A stretch of DNA of 64,000 bases from Candidatus Poribacteria bacterium (GTDB lineage Bacteria > Poribacteria > WGA-4E > JAJDTR01). The notes beneath the pieces are model-generated. The model ran no database searches. It saw nothing but the letters and a program-made list of their open reading frames with translations, and was not told where the DNA came from. Positions 23,381-48,526 of this stretch are shown here, in pieces. The first letter of the stretch is position 1, and each line of letters opens with the position of its first letter. Position numbers and translations under genes: made by a program. The stretch is taken from contig CBDCTK010000002.1 in the NCBI GenBank assembly GCA_965222225.1, forward strand, positions 3,200,001 to 3,264,000. Reading direction: 5' to 3'.

Positions 23381-25294
23381 CTACATCGTGCCGCCGAAGA
23401 ATATGAACCGATGCATAATATCGCCGATTATCGTCCAGATGCTCCCCACGACGTATTCCCCCAAAATGAGTCCCAAGAATAGAGGTCGCGCGCGGCGGTA
23501 CTGTCCAACCCCGCCGTACCTTATCAGTAACCACTTCATCGCGAAGCCGATAAACATGGAGAACCAGAAGTGGTTGATGTCTAGGCTGTTCGCTATCGCA
23601 TACCCACCCGGGTGCAGCCGCCACCAGAGGAACCGCTGGCGCATGGCAATCAGAAAGACTGAAACGCCAAAACCGATGCCTATGGTCTGTATACCTGAAA
23701 TCTCGATTTTTTTGGAGGGATAGGCGATCCAGTCTGCCACCCGCGTGTAGATAACATCGGCGAACCGTTGCAGGGAGCTGCCGCCCGAAGTGTAAGCCAC
23801 ATGCAGATAAACCCAGAACAGACTGAGTGTGCCGACAACCAACGCGGCTGTCATAGCCAGAAATATCCGCTTGTTGCCTACCCCGGCACGGTCAAGCAGC
23901 GCCAATCCCTCCATCTGATGCGGCTGCGGATGCCCCCGGTACGTGAAGTTGAAGAACCCCAGCATCGACATCACCGTTAAATTTCGATACCCTATACGGC
24001 GCGCCCCAAGAACATCGGGCAGAATCTGATCCGGTCCAGTGAAATGGAAGTCGTGCATGGGGACCCCCATCTCGGCTCGAAATCGGGTTAATCCAAGGGA
24101 CACCAGATAGTAGAGCAGAAAGAAAGTGAGGCTCAACCAGATCGCCATTCCCGCCTTCCACAGGAACAGGGTCATAAATCCAATCCCCAGAACTATGGTC
24201 AATACCGCTTTACGATAATTCGCTTGCTCCTCGGAATCAATTCCGGATGCACGCCTGAACATAACATTGAAGTATTTTCTGTTCACCCAGATTGCAATCA
24301 CCGCCATTCCGACCAATGCGCCGAACGACTGCTGATTGAGCGAAACCAGATACCCGGTATACGCAACACGCCGCGCGCCCAGCATTTCCGCGACAATCCG
24401 TTGCACCTTGCTCAGAAAGAAAAAGAATGCGCAAGAGAACGACATATCTAACGGCATGAAGAATCCCAAGCCAATGACGGGAAAGGCGAATCCGAGTTGT
24501 AGACTGCCGATGGCGCTCCACGGCTTGGTCGTGAAAAAATTGGACAATTCGTTTTCGTACGGATGGATACGTAGCCTCGGAACAGCAGGGTAGAGCGAAG
24601 CCAAACCGTTAATCAGCGCTATTCCGCCAGAGATGCCGAAGCCAATCCATAATAACCGACTCTTCAAAATGGGAGTTCTGGGATTCGTTATCTCAAGCGG
24701 CAACTGAATAATCGGATAGGATAGCCTCTCATTTTCCACCCACGGACGTCTGAACAACACGGCGATAGCGCCCATCACCAAGACCAACATCACGACAAAT
24801 GCCGACCAGCACAAGGCGGGGATGAGCCAGGGTTCAATGTGTTGCTTGATGTATAGCGTGGATTCTCCCCGATAGTAGGTTTGTAGCACGCCTTTATCGC
24901 TCACCGATAACCACGATGGAATATATCGGGCGAACAGGTTCTGCCAGTCGTTCTCCCGTGAGGCAACTCGAAAGGGATATTCCATGACCGGCACCAGCGT
25001 TTGCATCATCTGAAACGATTGTATCGCCGAGGTCAGGCTTAACATAATGTAAATGGTTATCAATTCCCCGTGCGTTAGAGACAGCCGCGGCGCAAACTTC
25101 GCCATTGGACGGTTAAACAGGGCTAACACAAACACGATGAACACAACATTAAAGAATGGGGAGATGATAGTGGGAATTGACTGGTACTGATAGGGTTGGC
25201 GGGAGATGACTAACCAATAACAGTTAATCGGGATAAGGATCATCCCGATTAAGATGATCCGAAGTGAAATTCCTGGCGGCTGGCTTTGTTTCAA
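23381..25294 (-). CDS. Polytopic membrane protein, DUF6785/DUF6784-like (putative transporter)
   Basis: Many TM segments; WVENERLSYPI, RFRAEMG, PQPHQMEG, WWRLHPGGY, RYGGVGQYRRARPLFLGLILG. Confidence 0.75.
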   Translation of the reverse strand: MKQSQPPGISLRIILIGMILIPINCYWLVISRQPYQYQSIPTIISPFFNVVFIVFVLALFNRPMAKFAPRLSLTHGELITIYIMLSLTSAIQSFQMMQTLVPVMEYPFRVASRENDWQNLFARYIPSWLSVSDKGVLQTYYRGESTLYIKQHIEPWLIPALCWSAFVVMLVLVMGAIAVLFRRPWVENERLSYPIIQLPLEITNPRTPILKSRLLWIGFGISGGIALINGLASLYPAVPRLRIHPYENELSNFFTTKPWSAIGSLQLGFAFPVIGLGFFMPLDMSFSCAFFFFLSKVQRIVAEMLGARRVAYTGYLVSLNQQSFGALVGMAVIAIWVNRKYFNVMFRRASGIDSEEQANYRKAVLTIVLGIGFMTLFLWKAGMAIWLSLTFFLLYYLVSLGLTRFRAEMGVPMHDFHFTGPDQILPDVLGARRIGYRNLTVMSMLGFFNFTYRGHPQPHQMEGLALLDRAGVGNKRIFLAMTAALVVGTLSLFWVYLHVAYTSGGSSLQRFADVIYTRVADWIAYPSKKIEISGIQTIGIGFGVSVFLIAMRQRFLWWRLHPGGYAIANSLDINHFWFSMFIGFAMKWLLIRYGGVGQYRRARPLFLGLILGEYVVGSIWTIIGDIMHRFIFFGGTM

Positions 25295-25349
25295 GACATT
25301 CCTTTTACGGTTTATGGCACGAATTCTCGATTATCAGATCGAAGTTCTT

Positions 25350-25371
25350 GTAGGGTGGGCACTGCCCACCA
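25350..25371 (+). repeat. GTAG-type REP-like palindrome
   Basis: GTAGGGTGGGCACTGCCCACCA. Confidence 0.8.
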
Positions 25372-25458
25372 TTCCCGGTTGAGTTCATACTAATACCATT
25401 TCTATATATTTTCAGTGCATAAATTGCGTCAATCAAGTCGTTCCAAGGCAGGGCAAGG

Positions 25459-25508
25459 GGATCTCTATCGCGGTCGTTATCCACTCCCTTGATCTATTCG
25501 CTCAGTTT
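25459..25508 (-). mobile_element. Micro-element inserted into the left half of another copy
   Basis: Minus strand AA CT GA GC GAATA G[ATCAA GG GA GT GGATA AC GA CC GCGATAG AGATCC]C. Confidence 0.7.
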
Positions 25509-25565
25509 GCGCATCACGAGCACAATCTAACAGATTATGCTACAAAGGCGGCAACTTGGGTTATC

Positions 25566-25665
25566 TAACAAGTGAACGCCAATGTTCATTTTTTGTGCAA
25601 GAGGGGCGTTGGCAGATCTCGCAACAGTGCCTGTGTCTTACAAATCTGGTAGAGCACCAGTGCTG
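25566..25665. repeat. ~100 bp dispersed repeat, copy 1
   Basis: taacaagtgaacg.caatgttcat...ggggcgttggcag.tctcgc.acagtgcctg...tacaaatctggtagagcaccagtgctg recurs at 31774..31872. Confidence 0.8.
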
Positions 25666-25736
25666 ACCTACCCTCCTGCTGGTAATACCATTTCTTACAG
25701 TGATAGGGTATCAATGATGTGAATTTCAGAAAAAAA

Positions 25737-25801
25737 GCTATCGCCTTCGCTATGGGATCTTCTATCGCGTTCGTTATTCACTCACTTGATCTCAGTTGAT
25801 C
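25737..25801 (-). mobile_element. Nested micro-element pair
   Basis: Minus strand G ATCAA CT GA G[ATCAA GT GA GT GAATA AC GA AC GCGATAG AAGATCC]C ATA GC GA AG GCGATAG. Confidence 0.75.
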
Positions 25802-25857
25802 GGTTTTGGGGCAGATGGTTCTACTTTTTTAGGCTAATATAACAAAAATTTTTTAGA

Positions 25858-25886
25858 TTGATAACTTAACGTATGTGTGGTATATT
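25858..25886 (+). promoter_or_regulatory. Sigma70-like promoter, copy 1 of a duplicated promoter
   Basis: TTGATA-17 nt-TATATT; flanks match 26585-26620 (ttttagattga.aacttaac). Confidence 0.5.
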
Positions 25887-26093
25887 TTAGTAGAATTCAA
25901 GCGGTTATGCGAGAAAATTGACGCTTGCGAGATTTCGATAGGAGAAAAAGGCTATAGACAATTTGGATAGTTTGCCACAACAGCCTACCGAAAGACAATA
26001 TGTTTCTGTGTTGCTATCCCACAATGTACTGGCGGCATAGGCACTCAAAAACGGAGGTGCCCGCTTGCAGGATAATATTGGAGTCATTGGATT

Positions 26094-26384
26094 ATGACCG
26101 AGGAAAAAGATGTTGGCTTAAAGCAATGGGTACGCGAGATAGATAAAAAGGTGGATAACATACTTGAATTCATGCACAAGATGGAAGTCCATCTCGACTA
26201 CACATCCAAGCGTATCGATACCCAGTGCGAAAAGTTGGCAATTCAGGACAATCGGCTTAAAGCGGTCGAGGACGAAATCCAAAAGCACAAGGGGGAGCTC
26301 ACGATGCTCAAGTGGATTTTGTCCGGGATTGGCGTAATTGTGGCGGCGGCGGTTCCGATTGTTATGATAGCAAAAGGTGGTTAA
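26094..26384 (+). CDS. Small coiled-coil protein with C-terminal TM helix (XhlA/holin-like architecture)
   Basis: 96 aa; heptad-rich region followed by WILSGIGVIVAAAVPIVMIA. Confidence 0.55.
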   Translation: MTEEKDVGLKQWVREIDKKVDNILEFMHKMEVHLDYTSKRIDTQCEKLAIQDNRLKAVEDEIQKHKGELTMLKWILSGIGVIVAAAVPIVMIAKGG

Positions 26385-26477
26385 TAAAAAGAATAAACAT
26401 CTTTCCATAATGTCCCGGAACCCGACGGCATTACAGACAACCTCGTTGATCGCGGCTTGGACTTGGCAATACAAGCC

Positions 26478-26544
26478 AATCAGTCGACCAGATAGGAAGG
26501 GATCAACTGAACGAATAGTGAAGGCGATAGCAAATCATAGTCTC
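26478..26544 (+). mobile_element. Nested micro-element pair
   Basis: AATCAG TC GA CC AGATA GG AA GG G[ATCAA CT GA AC GAATA GT GA AG GCGATAG CAAATC]ATAG TCTC. Confidence 0.7.
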
Positions 26545-26591
26545 GATGAAAGTTACTATGAGAGTTTTATATATTTTTGATAATTTTTAGA

Positions 26592-26620
26592 TTGACAACT
26601 TAACATATATATACTATACT
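26592..26620 (+). promoter_or_regulatory. Near-consensus sigma70 promoter
   Basis: TTGACA-17 nt-TATACT in an AT-rich stretch. Confidence 0.6.
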
Positions 26621-26957
26621 TATGTATAGTATATTTTGGTAGTAGTTGATACTTCCGAAGTGATGGTTCCAAATTCTGTGTTTTTCATTTAGAGCTTGTT
26701 TCAAATGTACAAAGTCCAGCCAAGATGATGTCGACGAAATGGAGTCCAGCGGTTAAGTACCAGCAAAGTATGCGGCACAGTGCGAAAAGCAAGGCGGCAT
26801 TCTGCTTCAGTTTCAAGTAGATTCCTTTAGCATGTTTCATTTCAGAGCAATTTGCCGAATACCTTTCATGCTGTTTTATCCGCTACCCTATAAAGGGTGG
26901 CAATTTCAACCACGTAGCCTACATTGTAGGCTACGACTACCATAAGGAGGCAGCACA

Positions 26958-27203
26958 ATGCCAAACTCAGTTCACCCCGACTACCACGACAAGTGGCAAG
27001 GAAGTTGCGCGGTTGTAGGTATCTACCACACGAGCAACTCACCGGGAGAAATAACCGTGTACTCAACGCACACGTTTAATCTCTATAATAACACGACCAA
27101 GAAGCAGACGTTCAACTGCGAGTATAGTCATAAAAGGTTCGCCGCGGGCACTGAGAAACGGACACTACGACATAAACGAACGACTTCACCTAATGTTCAG
27201 TAA
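26958..27203 (+). CDS. Hypothetical protein (possibly a remnant)
   Basis: Perfect RBS TAAGGAGG before the ATG; 81 aa; no recognised family. Confidence 0.4.
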   Translation: MPNSVHPDYHDKWQGSCAVVGIYHTSNSPGEITVYSTHTFNLYNNTTKKQTFNCEYSHKRFAAGTEKRTLRHKRTTSPNVQ

Positions 27204-27362
27204 GGAATTATTGAAGCGAAACCAACGCGTATTCCTGGAAATACGTGGTACCGCCGACACTCGAAATCATGATGCCCCTAAACACGTTAATTGAATGGAA
27301 GTTTCTCATGTAAATGTTCAGCTACCAAATCTTTGCCCCCACCTTTCTTAGGAGACCACTGC

Positions 27363-27758
27363 ATGAAACGTCTATTCATTCAATCCCACTGTACCATGCT
27401 TAATCTAGACCACGTAAGTTCCATCCGAATTGAACCCGAATATATCAGGCCTGAATCCGGGGGTTATCGCGATCCCGGGGAACGCCAACGCACCGATTAC
27501 TACGTCGTTCACGCCGAAAACGTAGCTATATATCGATCGCGCATAGAGCAAAAGTGCGAAGAGTTTATGATGCGCCTCGGCAACGCCGTCTGCCGATCGC
27601 CTGCAGATGCGGTCATCATAGCCACAATCAATGGCAAATTCATGTACCGCGCGCCATCTGACAAGATTGTGCTAATCCCCGACGAACAGTTTCATGCGGA
27701 AATGGAACAGATCGCGACGTATGCCGAGTTGCCGGACGAGTTAGGACCGGAAGATTAA
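27363..27758 (+). CDS. Hypothetical protein
   Basis: AGGAG RBS before ATG 27363 (MKRLFIQ...); next ORF starts 6 bp after the stop. Confidence 0.5.
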   Translation: MKRLFIQSHCTMLNLDHVSSIRIEPEYIRPESGGYRDPGERQRTDYYVVHAENVAIYRSRIEQKCEEFMMRLGNAVCRSPADAVIIATINGKFMYRAPSDKIVLIPDEQFHAEMEQIATYAELPDELGPED

Positions 27759-27764
27759 AGAGCA

Positions 27765-28091
27765 ATGAACCCAATCATCGACATCCCGGCAGAGGAGACC
27801 TACTCCATCCCGGACATCGTCGACCGCCTCGTCCCCCTGGTCGACGGCGTCGCACACCACCGCGCAGAAAGCGAGCTCCGCTATTCCGCCAGCGACATCT
27901 ACTGGTTGCTCCGGGACATGTTGAAGCGGGCGAACAAAGACATCGAAGGCGAGTTCTACATGCAAAGACTCAAAAAAGGAGACTGGCGGCTCGCCTATCG
28001 CCGCAGAACAGCCGACGAACAGAAAGCCGATATGCGCCACAAACGCCAAGTCGACGACACAAAGAAGCTAATCGAACGCCTGAAGTTTTGA
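27765..28091 (+). CDS. Hypothetical protein
   Basis: 108 aa, GC3-rich codons, operonic spacing. Confidence 0.5.
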   Translation: MNPIIDIPAEETYSIPDIVDRLVPLVDGVAHHRAESELRYSASDIYWLLRDMLKRANKDIEGEFYMQRLKKGDWRLAYRRRTADEQKADMRHKRQVDDTKKLIERLKF

Positions 28092-28309
28092 AAGGAGGGG
28101 ATGCGTTATGCCTGTCTAGTGCGTTGTTTTCTTAGGGATATGCCCGACATGTAACAGCCTCGGCGAATCCACACGCCGGGGCTTCTTCGCAAATTGACAT
28201 TCTGCGGAAAAACCCCGTCTATTTGCGAAAAAATAGCCTGAGTTGCACCCTATGCCGCGATGAAAGCGGACTGAAAGTAACACGAACACCAGAAGGAGTG
28301 GTTTAATCA

Positions 28310-29161
28310 ATGAGAAAATTGTTGTGCGTTTCACTCGCTTTGCTCATCATATCGTTGTCCAACCTGTATGCCGCTTGGACCAGAGAATTCCAAGAGGGCT
28401 ACCAACTGTTGAAAGCCCTCGAAATGAATCAACTCGTCGTTGTCGGCCGCGTGTCCGGTATCGAGTATCTTACCCGTTCAAATATAAGGGGTAGCCATAC
28501 CACCGATGTTACCGTGACCGTGGACGAGACGCTCAAAGGCAGTCCGAACCTCGGCACGGATCGTGTCAAATTTATGATTAAGGGCGGTGTGGGAATCGAC
28601 ACGTTAACCGGAGAACCGATCCGCCTAAACGTTAGCTTCCAGCCCCACTTTAAACTCGGGGAGCGTGTCCTGCTCTTCCTTACCAACTCTGCCTCTAGAG
28701 ACCCCGATGCCGCCAATTACCCCCATGGTCGATACCGACTGGTGCGAGGTAAATTCGGCAAACGCCTCGTCGTCAACGGTAAGGTGTACATGCGCTATCT
28801 GGACAGCGACACCGGCAATACGCTGAAAGCTGTGGAATTGCCTCTCGATATGGCGGTAGACCTGGCAAAGGCGTTTAAGCGGGATAAAGACGCAGCCATC
28901 CTGCTCGAGAACAGCATAAAAGCGTTGGCGAAAAGCGCGGCAGATGATTTGGTCACGCTCGACTCCACCACCATCCAGAACATCAAAAGCGGCGCCAAAC
29001 AGATTCTCGATCGACCCGAAGGAGGGAATTACCATGTTCCGAACCATCGCTTTCACACTAATAGCCATCGCGATCTCGTGCGGCCTCGTATGGGCAACCT
29101 GTCACAACACGCCCGACTGTGCGGATTTAATCAACCACCTCGTTTCCGGCGACTATTTTGA
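28310..29161 (+). CDS. Secreted hypothetical protein (3' end uncertain)
   Basis: AAGGAG RBS and signal peptide; the last ~40 codons overlap the next gene, so the real stop may be near 29030. Confidence 0.6.
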   Translation: MRKLLCVSLALLIISLSNLYAAWTREFQEGYQLLKALEMNQLVVVGRVSGIEYLTRSNIRGSHTTDVTVTVDETLKGSPNLGTDRVKFMIKGGVGIDTLTGEPIRLNVSFQPHFKLGERVLLFLTNSASRDPDAANYPHGRYRLVRGKFGKRLVVNGKVYMRYLDSDTGNTLKAVELPLDMAVDLAKAFKRDKDAAILLENSIKALAKSAADDLVTLDSTTIQNIKSGAKQILDRPEGGNYHVPNHRFHTNSHRDLVRPRMGNLSQHARLCGFNQPPRFRRLF

Positions 29162-29594
29162 CGAGTCTAACAGCAATACCATAGACTACAATGTCAACAC
29201 AACGTACCACGCGGAAATGCCTAATTTAACCGCCGATGTGGACGTGGCGGCCGCGACGTGGTCCGAAGCCGAGCACACCGGACAAGAGATAGATTTTAAT
29301 CTCAATAACGCAGGTACCACAACTCAGCACGCCCACGTTCGAGATAATCGAAATGTGATCGCCTATGGCGGCACACTGCCAAGTGGATGGGCCGCCGGCG
29401 TCTATACCTGGATACAGAACGACGTCATCCTGGAAGCGGATATGATGTTCAATTACTATCTGGATTTCGAACTGCATCCGGATTGGCAGCAAGGCGATGT
29501 ATGCATCCGCAACGTGGCAACCCACGAATTCGGACACTTCGTCCACCTGCTCGATTTGGCCCGGGTTGCCATAGTTCACCCGGATAGGTCTTGA
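29034..29594 (+). pseudogene. Matrixin-like secreted Zn metalloprotease, C-terminally truncated
   Basis: GGAGG RBS, signal peptide, EADMMFN, VATHEFGH; fused to IS630 sequence just after HLLDL. Confidence 0.65.
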
Positions 29595-30297
29595 CTGCAA
29601 TTGGCCCCATTTCATCAATGCAAATTGTTCGCGTGTCCGGTGGAGGCGCGATGTACGCCGAAATTATGGCCCCCTTTTTTCCACGAACTGTTCGTCCTGT
29701 TTTTCCGCATTATGAAACCAACTCTGCTGACGTTTCCAATTCAGCCCTTCTTCAGTTATCCAGCTCCATATTGTTGAATCGGAGAGATGAATCCCTTCTC
29801 TTTCTTTGAAGCTAATTTGCAGACGTTCTAGCGTCCACAACTCAAATGGATAATCCAGACTCGACGGTCTTTGCATCGCTAAATCAATCAGTTTACTGCG
29901 AACCTCTATCGAATGCGTTTTCGGTGCGCCGCTCCGGGGTTTATCAGCAAGTCCTTCAATGCCTTCGTCGTTGAAGGGATTTTCTATCGCGCTCCTTATT
30001 CAGTCGCTTGATCGCTTAATCCATTGCGCTCCGGAAACCCCCGTTTGAATCCAGCTTGTAGGGCGGCTTTGGAACTCGTTAGTTGGTTGTCATCAATCAT
30101 ATTGACGATGAGTTGAGCTCTTTGGACGAGCTGGTGAGATTGGGTACGTGAGTTAGCTAGAGTCCTAAGTTGGTGTTCTTCTGTTTCACTAACCGTACGA
30201 ACATAATGAACTCGTTTTCCCATTATGAATTCTCCTTTCCATTTCGGTTGAATGGGCAGGAGAATTATATCATAATTACTTGCCGAGAGAACCACTA
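29548..30297 (-). mobile_element. IS630-family transposase remnant
   Basis: Reconstructed MGKRVHY...QRAQLI...[22 protein letters not shown]...WTLERL...EK(A6G slippery site at 29674-29680)GAII...ICIDEMGP; TA end at 30296-30297; remainder of the DDE domain missing. Confidence 0.85.
29977..30012 (-). mobile_element. Single 36-nt micro-element inserted in the IS630 ORF
   Basis: AAGCG[ATCAA GC GA CT GAATA AG GA GC GCGATAG AAAATCC]CTTCAAC; removal restores W-I-K-R-F-N-D-E-G. Confidence 0.85.
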
Positions 30298-30379
30298 AGT
30301 ATCCAGCCGAAAATTAGAAGGTCACGTGCCATGATGTTACTCCAACTTAAAAATGTCCGATAACAAACCGTATCGGACG

Positions 30380-31470
30380 TTATTGTTTTATAGCCCCCCA
30401 CGTTGTAGCGGCTTTGGCGTAGGGGTTGACGACGGGAATCGAGGCGCGGAAGATGCCCCCGATGCTGTGTGGGAGGTAGAATCCTTGTTCTTCGTCCAGG
30501 GCGTAGAAAGTACGGCTAGCGGTGGCGTAAAGCCGGTCTTGATGGGATATCAGCTGACCGACACCGAACTCCGGCAGGCCGGCGGGAAACCAGGTTTCGT
30601 AGCGGTCGTCAAACACCCAGATTCCCTTTTTCCGAAGCCCGGCGAAGATACGGCCGCGATGGACGGCGAGGGCCGAGATCCTCGGCTCGTGCGGCAGTCC
30701 GGCGCTAAGATCGTCCCACGCGAGTTCGCCTTCGTCCCAGCGCCCAAAGGCGTATGCGGCGCCGACGTATAAGCGATCGTCATGCGCCAGCCAATCGCCC
30801 GGCGCTCCGTAATCGGTGAGGGCACGGCGGTGGCCGCCCCAAATTGGCATCAGTTCCCATGTGTCGCCCAGGTGGGGGTACGGTATAGGTCGGGGAAACC
30901 GACAAAGGCGGAGGCCCAGAGGTAGCCGTCGAACTCGGTCATCGTATGGCTACGAAAAGCGATGTGAGTTGACACATGCGGGCCGACGTGCACCCACTCC
31001 TCGTACGGGTAGTGCCAGGTCTCGCCTCGATCGCGGGATATGTGTGTGCCGGAGTGGTAGCCCACGGCGACGACCATACGGGATTCCGTGACGAGTATTT
31101 GGTTAATATAGGGGTGGTAGATGGGGCCGTCTATGCGATCCTCCTTATCAAGCCTGGTCAGACCGGCGTTTTTTGGAGCCCATGTCTCGCCGCAGTCATC
31201 GGATCGAAACATCCCGAATTCGGTGCCGGTATAGGCGTACACGGCATCGTCGCCGATTCCAAGGCAGTACACGCGGTGCGTCATGCCGGTCGGGCGCCAG
31301 GTGTCGCCGTCATCGTCGGAGATGTAGAGTCCGGTCCGGTCGGCGGCGTAGAGGCGTTCGCCGTCGCTTTCAAGCAGCGCCGCATCAATGTTGGGCAGGA
31401 ACTCCCAGTCGGCGCGGGCGCAGGCGGTCATGAGCAGGGCGATGGCGAGAATTGGGTATAGTGTTTTCAT
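30380..31470 (-). pseudogene. Secreted BNR/Asp-box beta-propeller protein with one frameshift near 30874
   Basis: Signal peptide MKTLYPILAIALL; Asp-boxes SDDDGDTW, SDDCGETW, SRDRGETW; adding one base gives LGDTWELMPIW... ending VNPYAKAATTWGAIKQ. Confidence 0.7.
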
Positions 31471-31773
31471 TTTATCCTTTCGGCGCGGATATTCGCATCC
31501 GATTCGTTCGCTAACATAGTCATCGTTACTACGAAAATGAAAGCGGTTCGCATTAAACGTCGAGTCCACATCATCGGAACGTCTCCCTTGGAGCTGATGG
31601 TTATCGGATTGATTGCGTTATTGGAGTGTATGCAAGTTATGCGCCACTATCTATCACGCGCCAAGGCTGTCCTAGTCCATAAGTTACCCTGAATTGGCAC
31701 GATCCCACGAATTGCATCAAACTCGCCCCCCGATGTGTCATGGAAACTCAATGGCGTTTCGTGATTTCGTGTA

Positions 31774-31872
31774 TAACAAGTGAACGACAATGTTCATATT
31801 ATGTACAAGGGGGCGTTGGCAGTTCTCGCTACAGTGCCTGGGTGCTACAAATCTGGTAGAGCACCAGTGCTG
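31774..31872. repeat. ~100 bp dispersed repeat, copy 2
   Basis: Direct-orientation match to 25566..25665 with scattered substitutions. Confidence 0.8.
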
Positions 31873-31902
31873 GCTTAACTAGCGGTAGGTTCGGCTGAAA
31901 AT

Positions 31903-31961
31903 GGATCTCTATGGGATTTCTATCAGGATTTGCTATCGCATTCGCTGTTCGCTCATTTGAT
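31903..31961 (-). mobile_element. Micro-element followed by two orphan 3' ends
   Basis: Minus strand G[ATCAA AT GA GC GAACA GC GA AT GCGATAG CAAATCC]TGATAGAAATCC CATAGAGATCC. Confidence 0.7.
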
Positions 31962-31980
31962 CGCCACGGGCGCTCTTAAA

Positions 31981-32042
31981 GGCTGGTGTGATCTCTATCG
32001 CGCTCATTATTCATTTGCTTATGATCGCAGTGCGCACCCTAC
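31981..32042 (-). repeat. GTAG REP palindrome interrupted by a 37-nt micro-element (31989..32025)
   Basis: Removing 31989..32025 restores GTAG GGTGCGCA C TGCGCACC AGCC, the same family as 2093..2118. Confidence 0.8.
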
Positions 32043-32145
32043 GAATGTACAGATCCAAGCTAACTGCGTAAATCCTATAAGTGAAATTCTTAATTGAAAT
32101 GGCCATAACCACGAACCACCAGTCACTGACCACTGTCTTTTCGAG

Positions 32146-33417
32146 CTACAGTTGAGCGCGTTTTACACCGTGCGTGAGCCTTCCGGTGGTGCCGTAAAAC
32201 GGATCGTCCTTATCCAAGGGCAGCGTCACCGGCTGGCGCTCCTCGGCAGATTTGTATATCGCTCGCACTACCTCCACATGGTGGCGCGGCACATCGATCG
32301 GCACGAGCGGCTCCGTGTTATCAGCAATGCTTTCCAAGAAGAGTCGGCTCTGATAGGCTTCGGTCGCGGTTTCCGGGACACCCTCCACCTCCGACCTTAG
32401 GTTTTCCAACGCCTCTACCACAGCCGGATTGTCGCTCGATCCGAACGTGGTCTCTGCCCGCCAATAGTTGCTCCTCCCCAATCCCGTGTTATGCGGAGGA
32501 GAGTAATAGGCTTCACCAACCAACATAGAGGCGTCGTAACCCAATACTTCGATGCGCCCTTCCGGTGTCAGCGGCTGTTTGTGGTTTAGCAGAGACGCAT
32601 GGATGCTGCCGGTTGCGCCGTTGTCGAACTTGACGACTGCCTGACTTAGGCTCTCGTGTTCAATCTCGCGCAGCGTAGGTCCCGAATAAGCAAAGATTTC
32701 CACGATTCGCGAACCGAGTACCCACAAGAACGGATCGATAATGTATCGGCCGTGATGGAACGAGGCTCCGCCTCCCTCACCATCCCATGTGCCGTGCCAG
32801 CGCTTGTAGTATCGTTGTGGACGATACCAGTTCAGTTCTACGCGAGCGCTGCCGATTTTGCCGAGTTTCCCGCTTTCCGCAACTTTACGCGCCAGAACCA
32901 TCCCCCGCGGGTAGCGAGCGCCGCACTGGGAATGAAATTTGACTCCCGTTTTCCGAATGGCTGCTGTCATGGCATCAGCCTGCGCCACGCTGCACGCCAT
33001 AGGGCCCTGAGTGAAGACATGGCGCCCCGTTTCAGCCGCGGCAACCGTCGGTTCCTGCCGTATCGGGGGCGGCGTGAGCAGCACTATTGCCTGCACGTCA
33101 CTATCCTTGAGCAACTCTTCATGAGTGCGATACTTCCGAATCTTTGTCCTAGCGGCGGTTTCAGCCGCTTCCACCATTTGTTGCCGACGCTCGCGTTCCT
33201 CAGGGGTGCGCGCCTCCGAAAGCATCATTCGCGCACGATGGGCTTCCATGGCATACCCCTCGCTGAGCGTAGTTCGCTTCCTTTCAGCCAGTTCATCTAC
33301 GAAATCTGCGACCGCTACCACCTGCGCGATGTCTACCAGACTTGCATAGATGTCCGCGTACAGCCGCGAGATTCCTCCGCATCCGACAAACCCGACGCGA
33401 ATTCGTTCATCTGTCAT
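32146..33417 (-). CDS. Gfo/Idh/MocA family oxidoreductase
   Basis: RVGFVGCGGI Rossmann motif, GRHVFTQGPMA, WHGTWDGEGGG, AIYKSA. Confidence 0.88.
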   Translation of the reverse strand: MTDERIRVGFVGCGGISRLYADIYASLVDIAQVVAVADFVDELAERKRTTLSEGYAMEAHRARMMLSEARTPEERERRQQMVEAAETAARTKIRKYRTHEELLKDSDVQAIVLLTPPPIRQEPTVAAAETGRHVFTQGPMACSVAQADAMTAAIRKTGVKFHSQCGARYPRGMVLARKVAESGKLGKIGSARVELNWYRPQRYYKRWHGTWDGEGGGASFHHGRYIIDPFLWVLGSRIVEIFAYSGPTLREIEHESLSQAVVKFDNGATGSIHASLLNHKQPLTPEGRIEVLGYDASMLVGEAYYSPPHNTGLGRSNYWRAETTFGSSDNPAVVEALENLRSEVEGVPETATEAYQSRLFLESIADNTEPLVPIDVPRHHVEVVRAIYKSAEERQPVTLPLDKDDPFYGTTGRLTHGVKRAQL

Positions 33418-35876: not shown

Positions 35877-37460
35877 TTACTGATCATTACCCATTCTCTC
35901 GGACCAATCACGCCATGCACTTGCCATCTGATCCATGATCTCTGGATGCTTCCGCCCCAAGTCCTTCGATTCTGTGCGGTCTGTTTCGAGGTCGTAGAGC
36001 TCCCAATTTCTCATGTCCCCGAGATTGCCGCGTCCAATGCTTTTCCAGTTTCCGTGCCGTACCGCTCTGTTGCCGCGGTGCTCCCAGAACAGCCAGTCAT
36101 GCCCTTCTCGATGATTGCCTTGGAGAATGGGTATGAGGCACTTTCCCGCACAGGGAGTGAGTTCTCGTCCGTTGTACTCCCTAGAATACTCAATGCCAGC
36201 TGCCTCGCAGAGCGTGGGTAGGATGTCCATTGCGTGTCCAAATTCGTGGGTAATGGCTCCCCCGCCACTGGTGACACCGGGCCAACGAACGACAAGCGGT
36301 GAGGCGATACCGCCTTCGTACAAACTGCCCTTGAAACCGCGCAACGGGGTGTTGTGCAGAGAACCCCACCCGGGTCCAGGCGAGCAGTAGGTGCCAATTC
36401 CGCCGGGGATAATATCCGGTCTATCGCGTTCCTCATTCTCGTACCCATCGCCGCCGTTATCCGACAAAAAGAGGACAATGGTATTCCGGTCCGCGCCGCA
36501 ATCCCCGAGAGCCTGTAGAATGCGTCCAATCCCCTGATCCATGCAGTCAATCATGCCCGCGTAGATCGTCATGCGTAAATCCTGCCACTCCTTATGTTCC
36601 TCGTTAGCCCATGAAGGAAGATTCGGAACACGATCCGGCAACCGAATTTCCGGGTTCAACAATCCCATGCTGAGTTGCCGTTCGTAGCGATTCCTTCGCA
36701 GTTCCTCCCATCCCGCCATGAATTTTCCGCGATACTTTTCGACATCTTCCCGTTTTGCTTGGAGCGGGCTATGCGGCGTCAAATGGGCAACGTAGGCGAA
36801 AAACGGATCTCCCTGTTTGCTGAAACGCTTGATTGTTTCAACCGCATGATCGTTAATCGCATCGGTGAGATAATAATCCTCGGGAAACTCTGACACAACT
36901 TCCTCATTGTGCATAACCGGAGGTCGAAAGCCTACGAATTTAAGATCGCGCAACGCCGGATTGAAATAGTTCGATGGAATATCGGCAAAGCCGTAATACT
37001 CGTCAAAACCCCAGTCTAACGGACTGCCCTGCACCGGCACATTCCATTTTCCGCTGATGGCGGTACGATAACCCGCCGAACGCAGGAGTTGCGCGACAGT
37101 GACTAGATTCGGAGATAATCGAGTGTTTCGCTCATCCACGTAACAATATAACCCGGTCATTAGCGAGGCGCGAGAGGGAACGCAGACCGGATTAACGCAG
37201 AACTGGCTGAAACGCAAACCTTCGGCAGCCAGCCGATCCAGGTGCGGCGTTTCGATTTCGCCCCCGTAACAGCCCGCATCCGACCAGCCCATGTCGTCCG
37301 CCATAATCAGAACGATGTTCGGCTTATCCGTCTCTGCCGCAGCCCCGTTCTTTCCTCCATTGGAAGCGGCATTAACGGCAAATGGTGCGAACGCCGATGC
37401 CGTAGCTGCACCCCCGGCCAGCCTTAGCAATTCTCGTCGAGTCAGTTTATTCCCCGCCAT
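35877..37460 (-). CDS. Tat-exported arylsulfatase
   Basis: TRRELL twin-arginine signal, PNIVLIMADDMG, CVPSRASLMTG (CxPxR), SDNG, ELYDL. Confidence 0.92.
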   Translation of the reverse strand: MAGNKLTRRELLRLAGGAATASAFAPFAVNAASNGGKNGAAAETDKPNIVLIMADDMGWSDAGCYGGEIETPHLDRLAAEGLRFSQFCVNPVCVPSRASLMTGLYCYVDERNTRLSPNLVTVAQLLRSAGYRTAISGKWNVPVQGSPLDWGFDEYYGFADIPSNYFNPALRDLKFVGFRPPVMHNEEVVSEFPEDYYLTDAINDHAVETIKRFSKQGDPFFAYVAHLTPHSPLQAKREDVEKYRGKFMAGWEELRRNRYERQLSMGLLNPEIRLPDRVPNLPSWANEEHKEWQDLRMTIYAGMIDCMDQGIGRILQALGDCGADRNTIVLFLSDNGGDGYENEERDRPDIIPGGIGTYCSPGPGWGSLHNTPLRGFKGSLYEGGIASPLVVRWPGVTSGGGAITHEFGHAMDILPTLCEAAGIEYSREYNGRELTPCAGKCLIPILQGNHREGHDWLFWEHRGNRAVRHGNWKSIGRGNLGDMRNWELYDLETDRTESKDLGRKHPEIMDQMASAWRDWSERMGNDQ

Positions 37461-37550
37461 TCTATTCTCGCCCATTTCCTCACATTGAGATCCTGTTTGA
37501 AAACTAGATGGAAAAGTCATTTAGGGCATTTGGAGTGATAGTACCTGCGA

Positions 37551-37698
37551 GAGTTCTATCGATCAACCGAGTGAATAGCGAGGGCGATAGCAAATCCTGC
37601 TCATTTGATCTATTCGCTCGGTTGAGGGATCTCTATCGGAATTTGCTATCGCGTTCCCTATTCGGTCACTTGATCCCTCCTTATTCAGTCGGTTGATC
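37551..37698. mobile_element. Composite of at least five micro-element copies in both orientations
   Basis: Plus-strand unit 37562..37597; minus-strand nest G ATCAA CC GA CT GAATA AG GA GG G[ATCAA GT GA CC GAATA GG GA AC GCGATAG CAAATTC]CGATAG AGATCC; additional half units. Confidence 0.8.
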
Positions 37699-39559
37699 CC
37701 ACGGTATCGACAAAGCTTGTATACCCGGGCCCACCGGCGCCCACATAGCCATGACTCGCGCCGGATTCGTCCGGGCTTACCCAAAACGAATAGAGCTCCC
37801 CCAGCCTCAGATGAAAGCGAAATTTAACGGGTTCACCCGCCACGCTTGATAGGTCGGCTCCGCCTTTCCACTCCACCCGATGCGATGTTCTGTTGGCCGT
37901 GAGAGGCACACAGTTATCCACTGTGAACGGCTCAACGACGTTGCCATCCTCATCAAGTACCTCCACCCGCAGTTCACCTTGATCGCAGTCCGTGTTCGCA
38001 AACAAGTACTTACCGGAAAACTTGAGCGGCCTTGTCGTCAGTGTACCGGTGTTCCGGACCGAGCCCATAGAGGCGAACCCGTCGCGCCTCAAGAACGCAA
38101 GCCCCGTATTCACGAACCCGTCCCATAGCTTTCCCTTTTCCGGGAGGTTGCGCCCCGTGAAATACAGGTACAATTTATCTCCGACAACCAGACACGCACC
38201 GCTTGCCGACTGTACATTTCCCCAGTTCCATGCGCCGGGGCTTTCCGTTGCCTCAAAAAAAGGCCGGCGATCCGGGCGGTCGTAATGGAACCCGTCCCTG
38301 CTGTAACCGAGCAGCACCTCGTTCCGCTTCGGTATGTGTTTTACGTGGCACACGTCGTTATCCGGCCCCTGCCAAATCGAAAAGTACCCAAGCATTAAAC
38401 TCTCATAGGCGACCGTGTCGAAATGATACAACTGCGGCAATATTTCTGCACTATCCGGGTTCGGGTTGCGAGGATCGAGCCGGTCCGCACCCAGCCACGG
38501 AACCACCTCACCACCAGGTCTAACCTCTGCCAATTTCACGGCTTCGACAGGGGTATCCCCCTCAACGTACGCACGCGCCCGACCGGTCTCTCGTCCACTG
38601 CGTATGTTAATAATCCACTTGTCCCGGAAGGGGTTGTAGTGCGCGTTCGTGTGGTCCCCGACCACCCCTGCTGAGCTGGCTATCGGCTCAGACCAGTGTA
38701 TGCCATCGGCTGAAGTCCTGTAGGCAACAGCGGAGTCTTCACCGAGGCGCTCAGGTAAGCCTATATGCCACGTTGTGTAGAAAATCTTGTATCGGGCTAA
38801 CCGGTCGCTGGTGTCGTAGTCAATCCAAACGCTTGTGGTATCAATCGGTCGTATGTGCTTCTTTTCTGGCCACTGCGGCGGTATCGGCGGCAACTCCACC
38901 CCGTGGTCAATCACGATGTTCGTTCCCGGCAGCACGTCCTGCTCGGTCTTCTCCCAGTGAACCCCATCCTTGGACGTTGCGTAACAACTGTACTTGATGT
39001 AACCGCCGACGTACCACATCTTGAATAGCTCGTCCTTCGGGTCGTACCAGACGCCGCCGCTGAAGGGACCGGCAAAGGGCGCGGGCCCATGATGTTCCCA
39101 CTCCCTGTCCGGCTTGATGATCGGGTTTCCCTCGTAGTAGGTTGGCTGGTGGAACGTGCGTTGCAGCGTGGTCTCCTCAATCAAGAAATCGTCCACGAAT
39201 AGTTGTCTTCCAACGTCAATGTTGATAACCTCGGGCGGATTTTCGAGATACGGGACAGGCATCGGATCCCGCGTCCATCCGCCGTAATCCGGCGGCCATT
39301 TCTCAGGCAGAACGATACCGTTGTAAAGTTCCTCGCCTGTGTCGTTCTGCTTGTCCTTCATTCTTACCTCCGATTGTCCTTCTCGCCCGGAATCTTGGTC
39401 GGTTTCCGTGACCGCAGCGAGCACTATGTGAGGACCAGATTTGCTGGAAATGTATTCTGTCGACGAACCTGATGGGGCGTTCCCGATCGCCATGGTATTC
39501 ACGAGCCAAACGCCCACAAAAGCTACCCCAAGGATTCCGTAGATTTTAATCGTTCCCAT
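37685..39559 (-). CDS. Secreted GH32/GH43-like five-bladed beta-propeller protein
   Basis: GRQLFVDDFLI, YATSKDGVHWEK, YSRDGFHYDRP, LRRDGFASM, LYSFWV; start taken at MGTIKIY. Confidence 0.75.
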   Translation of the reverse strand: MGTIKIYGILGVAFVGVWLVNTMAIGNAPSGSSTEYISSKSGPHIVLAAVTETDQDSGREGQSEVRMKDKQNDTGEELYNGIVLPEKWPPDYGGWTRDPMPVPYLENPPEVINIDVGRQLFVDDFLIEETTLQRTFHQPTYYEGNPIIKPDREWEHHGPAPFAGPFSGGVWYDPKDELFKMWYVGGYIKYSCYATSKDGVHWEKTEQDVLPGTNIVIDHGVELPPIPPQWPEKKHIRPIDTTSVWIDYDTSDRLARYKIFYTTWHIGLPERLGEDSAVAYRTSADGIHWSEPIASSAGVVGDHTNAHYNPFRDKWIINIRSGRETGRARAYVEGDTPVEAVKLAEVRPGGEVVPWLGADRLDPRNPNPDSAEILPQLYHFDTVAYESLMLGYFSIWQGPDNDVCHVKHIPKRNEVLLGYSRDGFHYDRPDRRPFFEATESPGAWNWGNVQSASGACLVVGDKLYLYFTGRNLPEKGKLWDGFVNTGLAFLRRDGFASMGSVRNTGTLTTRPLKFSGKYLFANTDCDQGELRVEVLDEDGNVVEPFTVDNCVPLTANRTSHRVEWKGGADLSSVAGEPVKFRFHLRLGELYSFWVSPDESGASHGYVGAGGPGYTSFVDTVGSTD

Positions 39560-39593
39560 ATAGCAATCTTCTTTTCTGTTTGCTTCACTTATT

Positions 39594-41103
39594 TCAGTTG
39601 CAACTAAACGAATACAATTTCGCGTTCTGCAACTCAAACCTTAATCGAACGTCCGTGCCTCTCGCGGCAGTCGGATCCCATCCTGCCCTCCACGTTACTT
39701 TGCCATCGGTGACGCTATTGTGGATGAGTTCGCCCTCGACGATTGGCGCTCCCTGCTCTCCAACAACCGCAGCACGGACAGACCCGCCTTCCTGCACATC
39801 TGCTGTAATCCGGAGCGACGCGAAATAACTCGTTACCAGTCTGGTCGTAATGACGGCGGGTATACCCGACGATATCTGTTCGTAACCGGCAAAACCGTCG
39901 GGACGCAACGTCGCCAAACAGAAAGAGCCGACCCGCCAACCGGAATGCGGGCCGTCGCTGGCACCGTAGTACAGACGAATCTCTTCATCCAAAAAGACGG
40001 GATTTGCAGCGGCGTACACGCACCCCCAATCGTAATCGGCTCGCTCGCTGCCTTGTGGAATTAGTGGCGAACCGGGGCATACCCGATGCCACCGAATCGT
40101 ATCCGGGCTCCAAGCCAACTCCGTATGCGTTCGATCGGTTTCCGTATTGTAGATCGCCGGTAATCCGAGATAAATCCCCTGATACCGAAACACCGGCATA
40201 CATATAGATTTGCAGATGGGGCATCTCTCCTTCAAACGCCTGCTCGACCTGCTTCCACTTGAGGAAATCCTTGCTGGCGACCCGTCCTACGGCGCGCACT
40301 CCCTGTTCCTGTCCGTTCACCGTAACCTTGGTTTCGCTGCTTATTCGGGTAAAACCGACATACTCGCCAAGTTCTGGAGACCAAAGAGCGTTGTTGGCGC
40401 TGTCCCATGCAATACCCGCTTCGGGGCATGGAATCTGTTGACTCCAGCGCACGCCATCGGCGGAGAACGCCACCGCCAACATTTGGTGCCCTGTGGTGTG
40501 GCCAATCATGAACGCCTTGTAGCGCCGAGCGGGATCCGGATCGTGCAAATCTTTGAACACGCTCGCACCATGGGGTCCGCGTACGGCAATATTATTTTCG
40601 CTGTTCCCGAGAAATTCAACAACTCCCAGCCTCGGCTTTTCCCAACGCAGACCGTCCTCGGAAACGGCATAGCAGATACCCTCATCCCTGTCCTCCGGGG
40701 ATCTGTAGAGAGTTTCTTCCCGCTCTTCAAGCGTCATGCCCTTTGCGGAGTTGTCGATGATGAACGGCATGTACCAGCACTTGTACAACTGTTCCTCTTC
40801 GTCATAAATGACCCTTGCGTAGAGGTTGTCATAGCGTTTCTCCCACGGCTCGTCTTCACCAAAAAGAGGATTGGAGGCGTGTTTCTCCACCACCCCGAGA
40901 GTCAATTGTGCATTTTGAGTGTTCGCAACAACACGCGAATCAAGCAGAAGGTATCTTTCTTTTTTCACGTCTTCATCCTTCTTTCCGTGGGCGCTGTTCG
41001 TCGAGAGACTATAGATTGCCATGGTGAGAATGACTGTCGCTGCCACCACCGTTTTACCATCGAACCTTGTGCGCCGTGCCTTCATGATAACATCCCACAA
41101 CAA
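39594..41103 (-). pseudogene. GH32-like beta-propeller protein with a +1 frameshift near 40203
   Basis: ORFs 39985..41103 and 39594..40235 together match intact 44363..45880 (QIYCMPVFRY); one extra base here. Confidence 0.8.
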
Positions 41104-41623
41104 TATCCACTAGACTTGTGCTTTTAACAGGTTACTCCAAACAGATGCCAATGACGGTGCCGCCGGCAACAAGTTGATGCGTCTCGGTAACAGGCAGGTC
41201 GCGAATTACGGCGTTTCCAGACGGTAGGGCTTGAGGAAGAGCGGTAAATCAATCCGGTGCAAGTCCGGCAAAAATCGGATTCTTCACGCACATCCCTAAA
41301 CTATAGTTTAACCTTACTTAAATAATACGTCAACACAAAGAATCACTTGCGAAAAGTGTTATCATCAACGAGACTCCCTACTTGCAGGGGCATAGCCACG
41401 ACCGCTTTTTCTCGACACAATTCGTTGAGCGTGTTACAATGAAAGCTATTCGGTGGAGATTGTTTTCACACGCTATAAACCGGAGTTTTTTCTTGAGACT
41501 CGGTTGCTGTCGCTTTATTAGCGACAGGGCAGTTCCATGTGTTGCAATCCTTATAAATTGAAACTCGGATGTTCCGTAAAAAACATCCCTATCAAAAAAC
41601 TCTATCGCGAAGGAGCGTTGTCA

Positions 41624-43285: not shown

Positions 43286-43313
43286 ACTTCCAAGAGATTC
43301 GAAGATGGTTATC

Positions 43314-43343
43314 GGCAGGGCACGCGGGTGTCCTGCCTTTTTT
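43314..43343 (+). terminator. Rho-independent terminator
   Basis: GGCAGGGCAC-loop-GTGTCCTGCC followed by T6. Confidence 0.75.
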
Positions 43344-43466
43344 GTAATCACTAAACGGGAGCACTTCATGATTTAGACCAATTTTATCAAGCATTTGGCG
43401 GTATGCCTGCCCCAATGGTGGGAATCGTTCCTAAATTATGGAATTGCTAACATTGCCTATTTTGGC

Positions 43467-43495
43467 TTGACAATCTATAGAGCCAACAGTATCAT
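43467..43495 (+). promoter_or_regulatory. Sigma70 promoter of the accD fragment
   Basis: TTGACA-17 nt-TATCAT; equivalent to 48472..48500. Confidence 0.55.
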
Positions 43496-43560
43496 AACTT
43501 TTTCCTACGAACAAGAATCGAATATGTAGTAAAACCCGGACGCGAGGATGGTGGCGATTC

Positions 43561-43791
43561 ATGGAATTGATTTCCTGTCGGAAATGCGACGCACAACTTG
43601 CCAAACAGGAGTTCATTAAGAGGCACCATAGAGTCTGCCCGGAATGCGATCATCATGACTATTTGAGCGCATTTGAACGTCTTGAACTATTGGTTGATGA
43701 CGGCAGTTTTGAATCGCACGACGACGGGCTTTATTCGCTCGATCCACTAGAATTTCCGGATTACGTGGAGAAACTGGAAAGAGACGCCGCC
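43561..43791 (+). pseudogene. accD: 5' fragment of accD (reads on into antisense sequence to 43935)
   Basis: MELISCRKC...CPECDHH...EKLERDAA matches the N-terminus of the intact accD, then switches at AGACGCCGCC. Confidence 0.85.
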
Positions 43792-44301
43792 GCTGAACGG
43801 ACCGGCGAAAGGCGCGGGACCATGATGCTCCCACTCCCTGTCCGGCTTGATGATCGGGTTTCCCTCGTAGTAGGTTGGCTGGTGGAACGTGCGTTGCAGC
43901 GTGGTCTCCTCAATCAAGAAATCGTCCACGAATAGCTGTCTTCCAACGTCAATGTTGATAATCTCGGGCGGATTCTCAAGATACGGCACAGGCATTGGCT
44001 CCCGTGTCCACCCGCCGTAATCCGGCGGCCACTGCTCAGGTAGAAGGATACCGTTGTAAAGCGTCTCGCCCTTCTGTGTTTCGTCTTTCTCCTCCTGTCT
44101 GATGCGCATGCTTACCTCCGCTTGCCTTTCCTGCCCAGAATCTGGGTCGGTTTCCGTGCCGACTGCGAGCATCACATGAGGGTTCGAATCGGTGGAGAAG
44201 TCTAGTGTCAACGAATCTGTTGGACCACCCCCAAGTGCTATGTTACTCACAAGCCATATTCCAACACAGACCAGCATCAAGATGTCGTTAACTCTAATCA
44301 T
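43782..44301 (-). pseudogene. 5' fragment of a paralogue of 37685..39559
   Basis: LYNGILLPEQWPPDYGGWTR...PFAGPFSGGV, truncated at the duplication junction. Confidence 0.85.
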
Positions 44302-44362
44302 TCCCGTCTAGTCCTTATGAGCCAAGCTGTTAGCAATTTCTCCTCTTTTTGCTTCGCTTATT

Positions 44363-48041: not shown

Positions 48042-48069
48042 GCTTCCAAGAGAATCGAAGATGGGTATA

Positions 48070-48101
48070 GGCAGGGCATCCACGGGTGCCTTGCCTTTTT
48101 T
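48070..48101 (+). terminator. Rho-independent terminator
   Basis: GGCAGGGCATC-loop-GGTGCCTTGCC followed by a T-run. Confidence 0.75.
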
Positions 48102-48500: not shown

Positions 48501-48526
48501 AATTTTCCTGTTAACCAGAATCACAT

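Follow-up and report, generated by a model that had tools for sequence, protein, structure and literature searches.

A 36-nucleotide (nt) block inside a decayed gene of the insertion sequence (IS) family IS630 is a real insertion of a very small and very abundant hairpin repeat. The block lies at positions 29976–30011, on the minus strand, of a 64,000-nt stretch of DNA (hereafter the window) from the sponge symbiont Candidatus Poribacteria bacterium, assembly GCA_965222225.1, contig CBDCTK010000002.1, positions 3,200,001 to 3,264,000. We consider it somewhat probable that this micro-repeat is a copy of a lineage-specific, very abundant, single-hairpin element of 35–36 nt that resembles repetitive extragenic palindromic sequences (REPs), that is mobile now or was so recently, and whose movement would depend on a Y1 HUH transposase. 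Comparison of filled and empty sites supports mobility without target duplication and, more generally, the idea that so short a piece of DNA can move as one unit. Exact before-and-after pairs for one hairpin of 35–36 nt yield its ends, its target preference, its habit of entering REPs and copies of itself, and the link of its orientation to GC skew.

A 36-nt insertion in an IS630 gene

The block had been noticed in a preliminary description of the window, where it was placed at 29977–30012 on the minus strand; at up to three mismatches this 36-mer is found once in the window, and 0 of 100 shuffles matched. That description held that the block had entered an IS630 open reading frame (ORF) without target duplication and after the IS itself, and expected intact IS630 copies to show an empty site. 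Alignment with the window copy agrees on all these points: the 36 nt are missing exactly here in all nine homologues, namely a paralog in the same genome (C2:2540901–2541556, 77% identical to the window IS630) and eight copies from the genomes G003, G004, G005 and G008, and the block therefore arrived after the IS. These eight come from a 16-kb query against the nine other congeneric genomes, which yielded many copies of the IS that are about 36 nt shorter over the same span. The closest copy (L143, in the congeneric genome G005) has flanks identical to those of the window, with TGGATTAAGCGA joined directly to TTCAACGACGAAGG and nothing duplicated. Compared with it, the insert is 36 nt long, reads TCAAG...AAAATCCC on the minus strand, ends in ATCCC and occupies 29976–30011, one base away from the first placement, for which a slip of 1–2 nt had been foreseen. 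The empty site itself had been misread as AAGCG^CTT; it is AAGCGA^TTC (AAGCGA followed directly by TTCAAC in the closest copy), the arginine codon at this place being CGA in six, CGC in one and CGG in two of the nine homologues. Removal of the 36-mer restores the helix-turn-helix (HTH) frame, W-I-K-R-F-N-D-E-G, and the intact orfA of the closest copy matches the reconstruction made earlier. In the transposase frame the insert amounts to 12 foreign codons, including a TGA stop.

The filled allele recurs in contigs of three runs, the RNA libraries X15 and X16 and X4, a run of unknown kind. These contigs cover 29600–30010 with no differences and bridge the junction between 29975 and 29976 with 35 nt inside the block, which is therefore not an assembly quirk. 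At the other junction, contigs that cover 29987–30300 reach only 25 nt into the block, short of the 31 nt required for bridging.

An abundant repeat family restricted to few lineages

Iterated nhmmer searches started from the block returned 822, then 1,394 and finally 1,470 hits in the 5.7-Mb Candidatus Poribacteria genome, itself metagenome-assembled. Near full-length hits number 896, and the 882 ungapped ones, aligned to a model of 38 positions, are the basis of the statistics given here. The family motif is (S)G ATCAA NN GA NY GRATA RN GA NN GCGATAG ARATCC(C), with a tail that is one base longer in some copies, including the one in IS630. Half-unit hits (model positions 1–24 or 16–38) are common across the genome, and at 2117–2176 the window contains a tandem array of the 5' half with a period of 19 nt.

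A strict pattern occurs 486 times in the genome studied (genus g1), 274–752 times in each of the nine other g1 genomes, 110–125 times in each of four genomes of g4, a genus of another family, and 1–13 times in four other genomes, its reversed control giving 0 in every genome. The pattern is absent from 134 genomes of a 151-genome sample of the phylum Poribacteria. At least 101 stretches carry it among species-representative genomes, and those among the matches listed all belong to metagenome-assembled genomes of Candidatus Poribacteria, a scan that says nothing on other phyla; among viral contigs 0 stretches carry it. No Rfam family reaches its gathering threshold anywhere in the window. A full-text literature search, judged by titles and the starts of abstracts and with supplements outside it, yielded no description of DNA repeats of this kind in Poribacteria.

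Hits inside crude ORF calls, which cover 84% of the genome, number 333 of 1,467 on the chromosome (92 sense and 241 antisense). Copies between tandem genes are in sense orientation in 386 cases and antisense in 296. Direct orientation prevails among neighbouring copies closer than 100 nt (516 of 603 pairs), and 362 of the 1,470 hits are isolated, with no other hit within 400 nt.

A hairpin maintained by compensatory change

Mutual information singles out the column pairs 12–20, 9–23, 8–24 and 13–19. Across 783 distinct copies these four pairs form a standard base pair in 94.8% of cells, against 58.9% on average and 60.8% at most in 500 shuffles, and each shows three or four pair types. Sliding the 3' partner one or two columns gives pairing of 2–97% per pair, the high values arising where the slid partner is an invariant G. 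Besides the four covarying pairs there are three invariant ones; invariant G10.A22 and A11.G21 form tandem G.A pairs between the paired steps, the loop reads GRATA, and ATC/GAT closes the foot. The hairpin surmised in the preliminary description thus exists by covariation, with 215 stem combinations among the 882 copies, and under RNA parameters the lowest-energy fold coincides exactly with the covariation structure in 344 of the 783 distinct copies. The hairpin of the inserted copy (about 29986–30012, minus strand) has the stem type GC/CT-AG/GC, the third commonest, shared by 35 of the 882 full-length copies.

G-T occupies 24.9% of cells at pair 8–24 and 13.3% at pair 13–19, and A-C only 1.4–2.2%. 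Since G-T is far commoner than A-C, one strand, the motif as written, is the folded strand. We rejected mutation bias as the source of the G-T excess on the argument that deamination on the G-rich strand would give A-C on the folded strand.

Three known kinds of structured repeat were also set aside: a kink-turn, because the G.A pairs and the internal loop are separated by two Watson-Crick pairs; a CRISPR repeat, because copies are solitary and form no spacer arrays; and a terminator or stabiliser hairpin, because the fold is too weak.

Exact junctions at other insertion sites

The joined flanks of 120 of the 882 copies match another place in the genome across the junction, and 51 of these matches are anchored on both sides. 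A first flank-joining test, with all 38 model positions removed, needed 3-nt gaps and was replaced by a gap-free test specific to the register, in which A3..C37 (register i) or T4..C38 (register ii) is deleted and each of the joined flanks must match over 20 nt or more at an identity of no less than 88%, and the 10 nt that span the junction must be identical. Fifteen of the 882 copies pass, eight in register i only, seven in register ii only (two of them trivial tandem neighbours) and none in both. In register i the insert is followed by the base of the empty site, C in six cases and T in two. The two registers can be written as G^[A...ATCC]^C/T and GA^[T...ATCCC]^N, insertion being always after G, and the IS630 event belongs to register ii. 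According to the flank tests, the inserting unit has 35 nt, or 36 in long-tailed copies; it enters behind a G, in either of two registers one base apart, and duplicates nothing.

The clean and independent cases comprise insertions into three REPs carrying a GTAG tag (at GGAGCGA^TCTCC, GTCGGG^CTTCC and GGGG^CATCT, respectively), a GC-rich REP unit (at CTGCG^CACC and GGGG^CGAC), a repeat that is not a REP (at GACAG^TTTGCG) and the family itself, with nested copies at ...CGA^GTGCGATAG and ...GAACGA^ATAG. Many copies travel within larger composite repeats. In the left flanks of 340 isolated copies the preferred bases are A(0.49) G(0.58) S(0.82) G(0.89), a motif that carries little information.

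Orthologous loci give the same picture. The REP downstream of an IS200-like Y1 gene is filled in the genome studied and in the congeneric genomes G001 and G005, and intact (CACCTGTCGCCCC...) in G002, G009, G004 and G012 (genus g4); in G002 the upstream REP has an independent copy with an exact right junction, ATCC being followed by CGACAGG. Similarly, the REP downstream of the genome's own RAYT (REP-associated tyrosine transposase) pseudogene is interrupted at GAGCGA^TCTC by a nested pair of copies and is intact in G006. These filled and empty pairs, within the genome and at orthologous loci of relatives, bear out the earlier proposal of a very small, non-autonomous mobile element.

Orientation along the chromosome

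The orientation of the copies follows GC skew. With skew computed over ±25 kb and the copies masked, regions of positive skew hold 249 copies on the plus and 443 on the minus strand, and regions of negative skew 578 and 197 (Fisher p 5e-51); at the level of 510 clusters the link persists with p 1e-16. This bias would tie the element to replication or to single-stranded DNA. Replication direction was taken from GC skew alone, and gene-strand counts identify the G-rich strand as the leading strand in most bins. The GC-skew profile of the chromosome changes sign many times instead of twice, which limits replichore arguments, and these switches could stem from rearrangements, assembly joins or weak skew.

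A possible mechanism and its alternatives

Single-strand transposition by a Y1 HUH enzyme would be the best mechanism, and a plausible one, because duplication-free, sequence-guided insertion of a hairpin into DNA prone to be single-stranded fits it best. The unit would be cut from single-stranded DNA and pasted or copied into it by a transposase of the IS200/IS605 or RAYT type acting in trans. The enzyme would recognise its substrate by the hairpin with the tandem G.A pairs and by two invariant flanks, GATCAA and GCGATAG, while a short G-rich target (about A-G-S-G) would correspond to the one that IS608 has at its left flank. The preliminary description had suggested Y1/RAYT chemistry, with which the duplication-free insertion of a hairpin fits well; the Y1 genes that could be traced carry other REPs, and the chemistry itself is a conjecture.

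The five Y1_Tnp matches in the genome provide candidate enzymes for such a mechanism, but several observations speak against it. L001 (G000:C2:3080258–3080728) is an intact gene of 157 amino acids with HUH and Y motifs; it passes the cut-off of the NCBIfam IS200 model (65.8 bits) and stays below that of the RAYT model (30.6 bits against 80). In three genomes of genus g6 its homologues are flanked on both sides, in inverted orientation, by a GC-rich REP and not by the 36-mer; a fourth g6 locus has no such repeat, and the two homologues in g4 have related hairpin REPs, also GC-rich, on their flanks. This IS200-like gene was rejected as the specific partner because its own repeat is the GC-rich REP, which shares with the micro-repeat only a GCGAYAG box next to the hairpin. 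L003, a RAYT by NCBIfam (104 bits) with an in-frame TAG, was rejected likewise, its own repeat being a GTAG REP; intact orthologues of this RAYT exist, for instance in L019. L005, a fragment of 92 amino acids, is the sole gene fragment tightly flanked by two inverted 36-mers; it was rejected because its nine closer relatives all lack the 36-mer nearby, and among 15 loci of L005 relatives only the one in g4 has a partial hit, about 0.8 kb away. The two others, L002 and L004, have no full copy within 3 kb, L004 having one truncated and one partial hit. The micro-repeat stands near some Y1 genes only irregularly or as insertions into their REPs, and no Y1 gene is consistently flanked by it. Y1 homologues occur also in genera without the repeat, and three of the nine congeners, with 274–620 strict copies, have no close RAYT-type homologue. 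As the traced Y1 genes carry other REPs, the element looks like an orphan, and it may borrow one of the resident Y1 enzymes.

Strand polarity, registers, fold stability and read data also count against a Y1 mechanism. About 70% of the folded, G-T-rich strands lie on the C-rich strand, which corresponds to the leading-strand template, and the rule established for IS608 predicts the opposite polarity if the hairpin strand is the active one; one might speculate that trapped copies accumulate in the inactive orientation. To our knowledge, the use of two cleavage registers is not a property of IS608-type enzymes. The hairpin is no stabler than shuffled sequences, with z-scores of 0.16–1.34 in all six DNA folds and a mean RNA fold of -5.59 kcal/mol against -5.15 for shuffles, and it may be a shape read by a protein rather than a stability element. 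Finally, read mapping had been expected to contrast empty and filled alleles and to reveal circular junctions, and only the filled allele was recovered: over 29600–30300, the X15, X16 and X4 contigs and X21, a set of raw Hi-C reads of which about 2% was read, gave no joint skipping the block, no empty allele and no circle junction. This test has almost no power, raw-read depth on the unique flanks being 3 at most and contigs dropping rare variants, and the absence is no evidence against polymorphism. One joint in X4 that goes back 42 belongs to another repeat context.

Several classic REP/Y1 pairs are present in Poribacteria. A GC-rich hairpin REP (GCCCC-NNN-GGGGC with GACAKGT..TATAG) flanks an IS200-like Y1 gene, and at least three different GTAG-tagged REPs flank RAYT genes. 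The loci concerned are L013–L015, L012, L017, L019, L026, L028, L030 and L031 in relatives, and G000:C2:3078758–3082228 and 3087533–3090847 in the genome studied.

A bolder version of the transposition hypothesis, which we advance tentatively and hold to be possible rather than probable, sees in the 35-nt single hairpin a self-contained “nano-transposon” lineage instead of a decayed REPIN (an inverted REP doublet). Direct filled/empty evidence of movement would not exist for any smaller DNA unit, and this one would be a hyper-parasite homing into classic REP hairpins and into itself in two registers by means of a foreign resident Y1 enzyme or an unknown one. If true, this would overturn the view of single REP units as immobile remnants and provide a defined target rule for REP-type mobility. 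The element may also be mobile by a route that does not involve Y1 enzymes, either an RNA intermediate with reverse transcription or an unrecognised nuclease, ligase or recombinase reading the structured strand. Wobble of the G-U type fits RNA as well as single-stranded DNA, the covariation fold is often the RNA minimum-energy fold (344 of 783 copies), copies between tandem genes show a mild sense preference (386 versus 296), the repeat sequence is present in RNA libraries, and no cognate Y1 gene was found. We nonetheless regard this route as rather unlikely, since orientation tracks GC skew far more strongly than gene direction and the ratio of repeat to flank depth in the RNA libraries (about 280-fold) compares with about 290-fold in X4, giving no sign of an abundant small RNA; no link to a reverse transcriptase turned up, although none was searched for.

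It is less likely again that the repeat is no transposon at all, having spread by template switching at forks, microhomology copying or gene conversion among clusters, with the IS630 copy as a one-off capture. In its favour, the one-base ambiguity of junctions in two registers recalls microhomology joins, close pairs are mostly direct (516 of 603) and many overlap or abut, a half-unit array with a 19-nt period exists at 2117–2176, and many copies are carried inside larger composite repeats. However, the same exact ends recur at unique sites unrelated to one another, in IS630, in four different REP families and in other copies, one homologous base cannot direct copying with constant element ends, and 362 of the 1,470 hits stand alone, more than 400 nt from any other. 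Another alternative is a functional site under host selection, such as a protein-binding site on DNA or RNA, whose mobility would be a by-product or long past; it has slightly lower standing in our view and is improbable. It would account for pairing kept by compensation across 215 stem combinations, for stem types shared among species, for sites that are conserved and orthologous across species and for the strong depletion from ORFs (333 of 1,467 hits, with about 84% of the genome called as ORF). Yet selection for transposability would preserve pairing equally, the repeat disrupts IS630 and the REPs flanking RAYT genes and nests in itself, and its strict copies vary from 274 to 752 among congeners, with none found in 134 of the 151 Poribacteria genomes sampled. 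As for the 36 nt being native to IS630, as 12 extra codons or an intron-like segment, or an assembly artefact, a length divisible by three is what speaks for it; with nine of nine homologues lacking the block, a TGA stop in the transposase frame, the filled allele in contigs of three further runs and membership of a family of 1,470 hits, we find it next to impossible.

The IS630 remnant and its surroundings

The host gene is an IS630-family remnant truncated at its 3' end (29549–30300, minus strand), comprising the HTH region of orfA and the first portion of the DDE part, as delimited by three-frame reading, Pfam and the extent of homology to copies in relatives; the DDE part is cut off near 29549. 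Matches to both the HTH N-terminal part and the DDE_3 catalytic part assign the gene to this family: Pfam HTH_32 is found at 29667–29975, directly downstream of the block (E 9.5e-13), homologous copies match Pfam DDE_3 as well, and the NCBIfam IS630 model NF033545 scores 65.2 bits with the N-terminal part of L143 and 119.6 bits with the C-terminal part of the paralog (cut-off 100). On the minus strand orfA starts at 30222 and is broken both by the insert and by a 1-nt deletion. The deletion, apparent from the frames and from alignment with the paralog (GGATTCAAA-CGGGG), lies within 30040–30048, near 30044 (minus strand), and shifts the orfA frame upstream of the insert; after it the frame reads VSGAQWIKR, then foreign codons, then orfA sequence again. 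Where the frame changes between orfA and orfB, that is, between the HTH and DDE parts, a slippery run of the A_AAA_AAG type (29674–29682, minus strand) is present also in the paralog (G000:C2 ~2541000) and is likely a programmed -1 frameshift site of IS630, to judge from its sequence and position.

The remnant lies in a part of the window, about 25400–32100, that is missing from the syntenic loci of nine congeneric genomes, which have a few hundred bases between the flanking genes. This part also contains a truncated metalloprotease-like ORF with an HEFGH motif (28944–29594, plus strand) that runs into the IS, and is bracketed by 68-nt direct repeats, 90% identical, at 25603–25670 and 31810–31877. 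ARAGORN found no tRNA in 24000–33000. At the 5' end of the remnant (30248–30300), contig depth is about 400 times that of the flanks in two RNA libraries and about 4 times in X4; the high depth could come from an RNA present in quantity or from an IS end that exists in many copies in the community.

Further copies of the micro-repeat are scattered over the window. On the minus strand they lie at 2000–2036 (nhmmer E 2.2e-10), 25458–25494 (1.8e-10), 25755–25791 (6.9e-09) and 31926–31963 (1.8e-08), with a partial copy (model positions 6–36) at 31990–32020 (2.4e-06); on the plus strand they lie at 26501–26536 (4.7e-08), 48187–48223 (4.4e-06), 49347–49384 (1.5e-10) and 57032–57067 (2.8e-06). The copy at 48187–48223 sits in one unit of a tandem duplication of about 4.75 kb (39049–43791 and 43782–48793, with segments 76–93% identical). 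At 37560–37597 (plus strand) a copy is placed inside a degenerate copy in reverse orientation, after ...TATCG, and G009 has the same left flank without it. Two adjacent minus-strand copies at 37642–37698, one full (37642–37675) and one partial (37676–37698), occupy a place whose orthologue is filled in G001, G004, G002 and G009. The orthologous intergenic region of 37460–37740 is too rearranged to give exact junctions.

Comparison with known systems

Among short repeats known to be mobile, miniature inverted-repeat transposable elements (MITEs) are likewise non-autonomous, short and abundant. Nevertheless, MITEs measure 70–300 bp, end in inverted repeats and duplicate their target through DDE transposases; the micro-repeat has none of these features, and its ends, GATCAA and ARATCC, form no inverted repeats. 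Rickettsia palindromic elements and intragenic REPs resemble it in being palindromic repeats inside a protein-coding gene, but those are mostly in frame and tolerated, whereas here there is an in-frame stop and the host gene is a decayed IS.

With IS200/IS605 elements such as IS608 and ISDra2 the micro-repeat shares the lack of target duplication, and it would also share a short specific adjacent sequence, hairpin recognition and an orientation tied to replication. It differs from them in its size of 35–36 nt, in having one hairpin in place of two different ends, in encoding nothing and in using two registers, and from IS608 also in the opposite polarity of its strand bias. Passages of PMC6006769 describe insertion and excision of IS200/IS605 elements on the lagging-strand template, and cleavage and rejoining of REPs by TnpA-REP.

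The small dispersed repeats (SDRs) of heterocystous cyanobacteria, likewise very small, were reportedly argued to be mobile by Elhai et al. (2008, Genome Res 18:1484) on the basis of precise and nested insertions. According to a passage of PMC4390886, one of them, SDR5, has a precise insertion point, said to lie behind the third base of GCGATCGC (GCG^ATC), and the filled left junction of the micro-repeat reads (A)GCG followed by ATCAA. The SDRs, known to us from this one secondary passage and from general background, differ from the micro-repeat in phylum, sequence and length (21–27 nt).

In its workings the micro-repeat resembles a REP, or a minimal passenger of the IS200/IS605 type. Like the repeats of REP/RAYT systems, with their REPtrons and REPINs, it is a lineage-specific, high-copy, mostly extragenic hairpin repeat of 20–40 nt, with several subfamilies showing compensatory stems, in genomes with single- or low-copy Y1 HUH genes. 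It is REP-like but departs from REPs in three defining respects, the tag, the inverted doublets and the cognate flanked gene. Position frequencies reveal neither a GT[AG]G nor a CGTC tag, and the foot is preceded on its 5' side by four bases of about A-G-S-G; neighbouring copies are direct (516 of 603) and not inverted doublets as in REPINs; and, unlike REPtrons, there is no consistently flanked Y1 gene. Moreover, its thermodynamically weak stem has paired steps of 2 bp around the invariant tandem G.A pairs, and in the same genome it invades classic REPs. REP insertions inside genes and REP-in-REP associations are already in print, as passages of PMC3733652 and PMC6006769 attest. Regarding movement, the relevant passages of Bertels and Rainey (2011; PMC3116915) report three excision reads and 18 doubtful insertions, with 93% of REPINs as inverted doublets, only these doublets being argued to move and singlets being held to be immobile remnants. 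Evidence for REP-type movement has so far been mostly indirect, and the micro-repeat offers a case in which the mechanism is testable with short oligonucleotides and a few Y1 proteins. It is also a practical marker in Poribacteria assemblies and a cause of contig breaks, the contigs of three runs ending inside the repeat.

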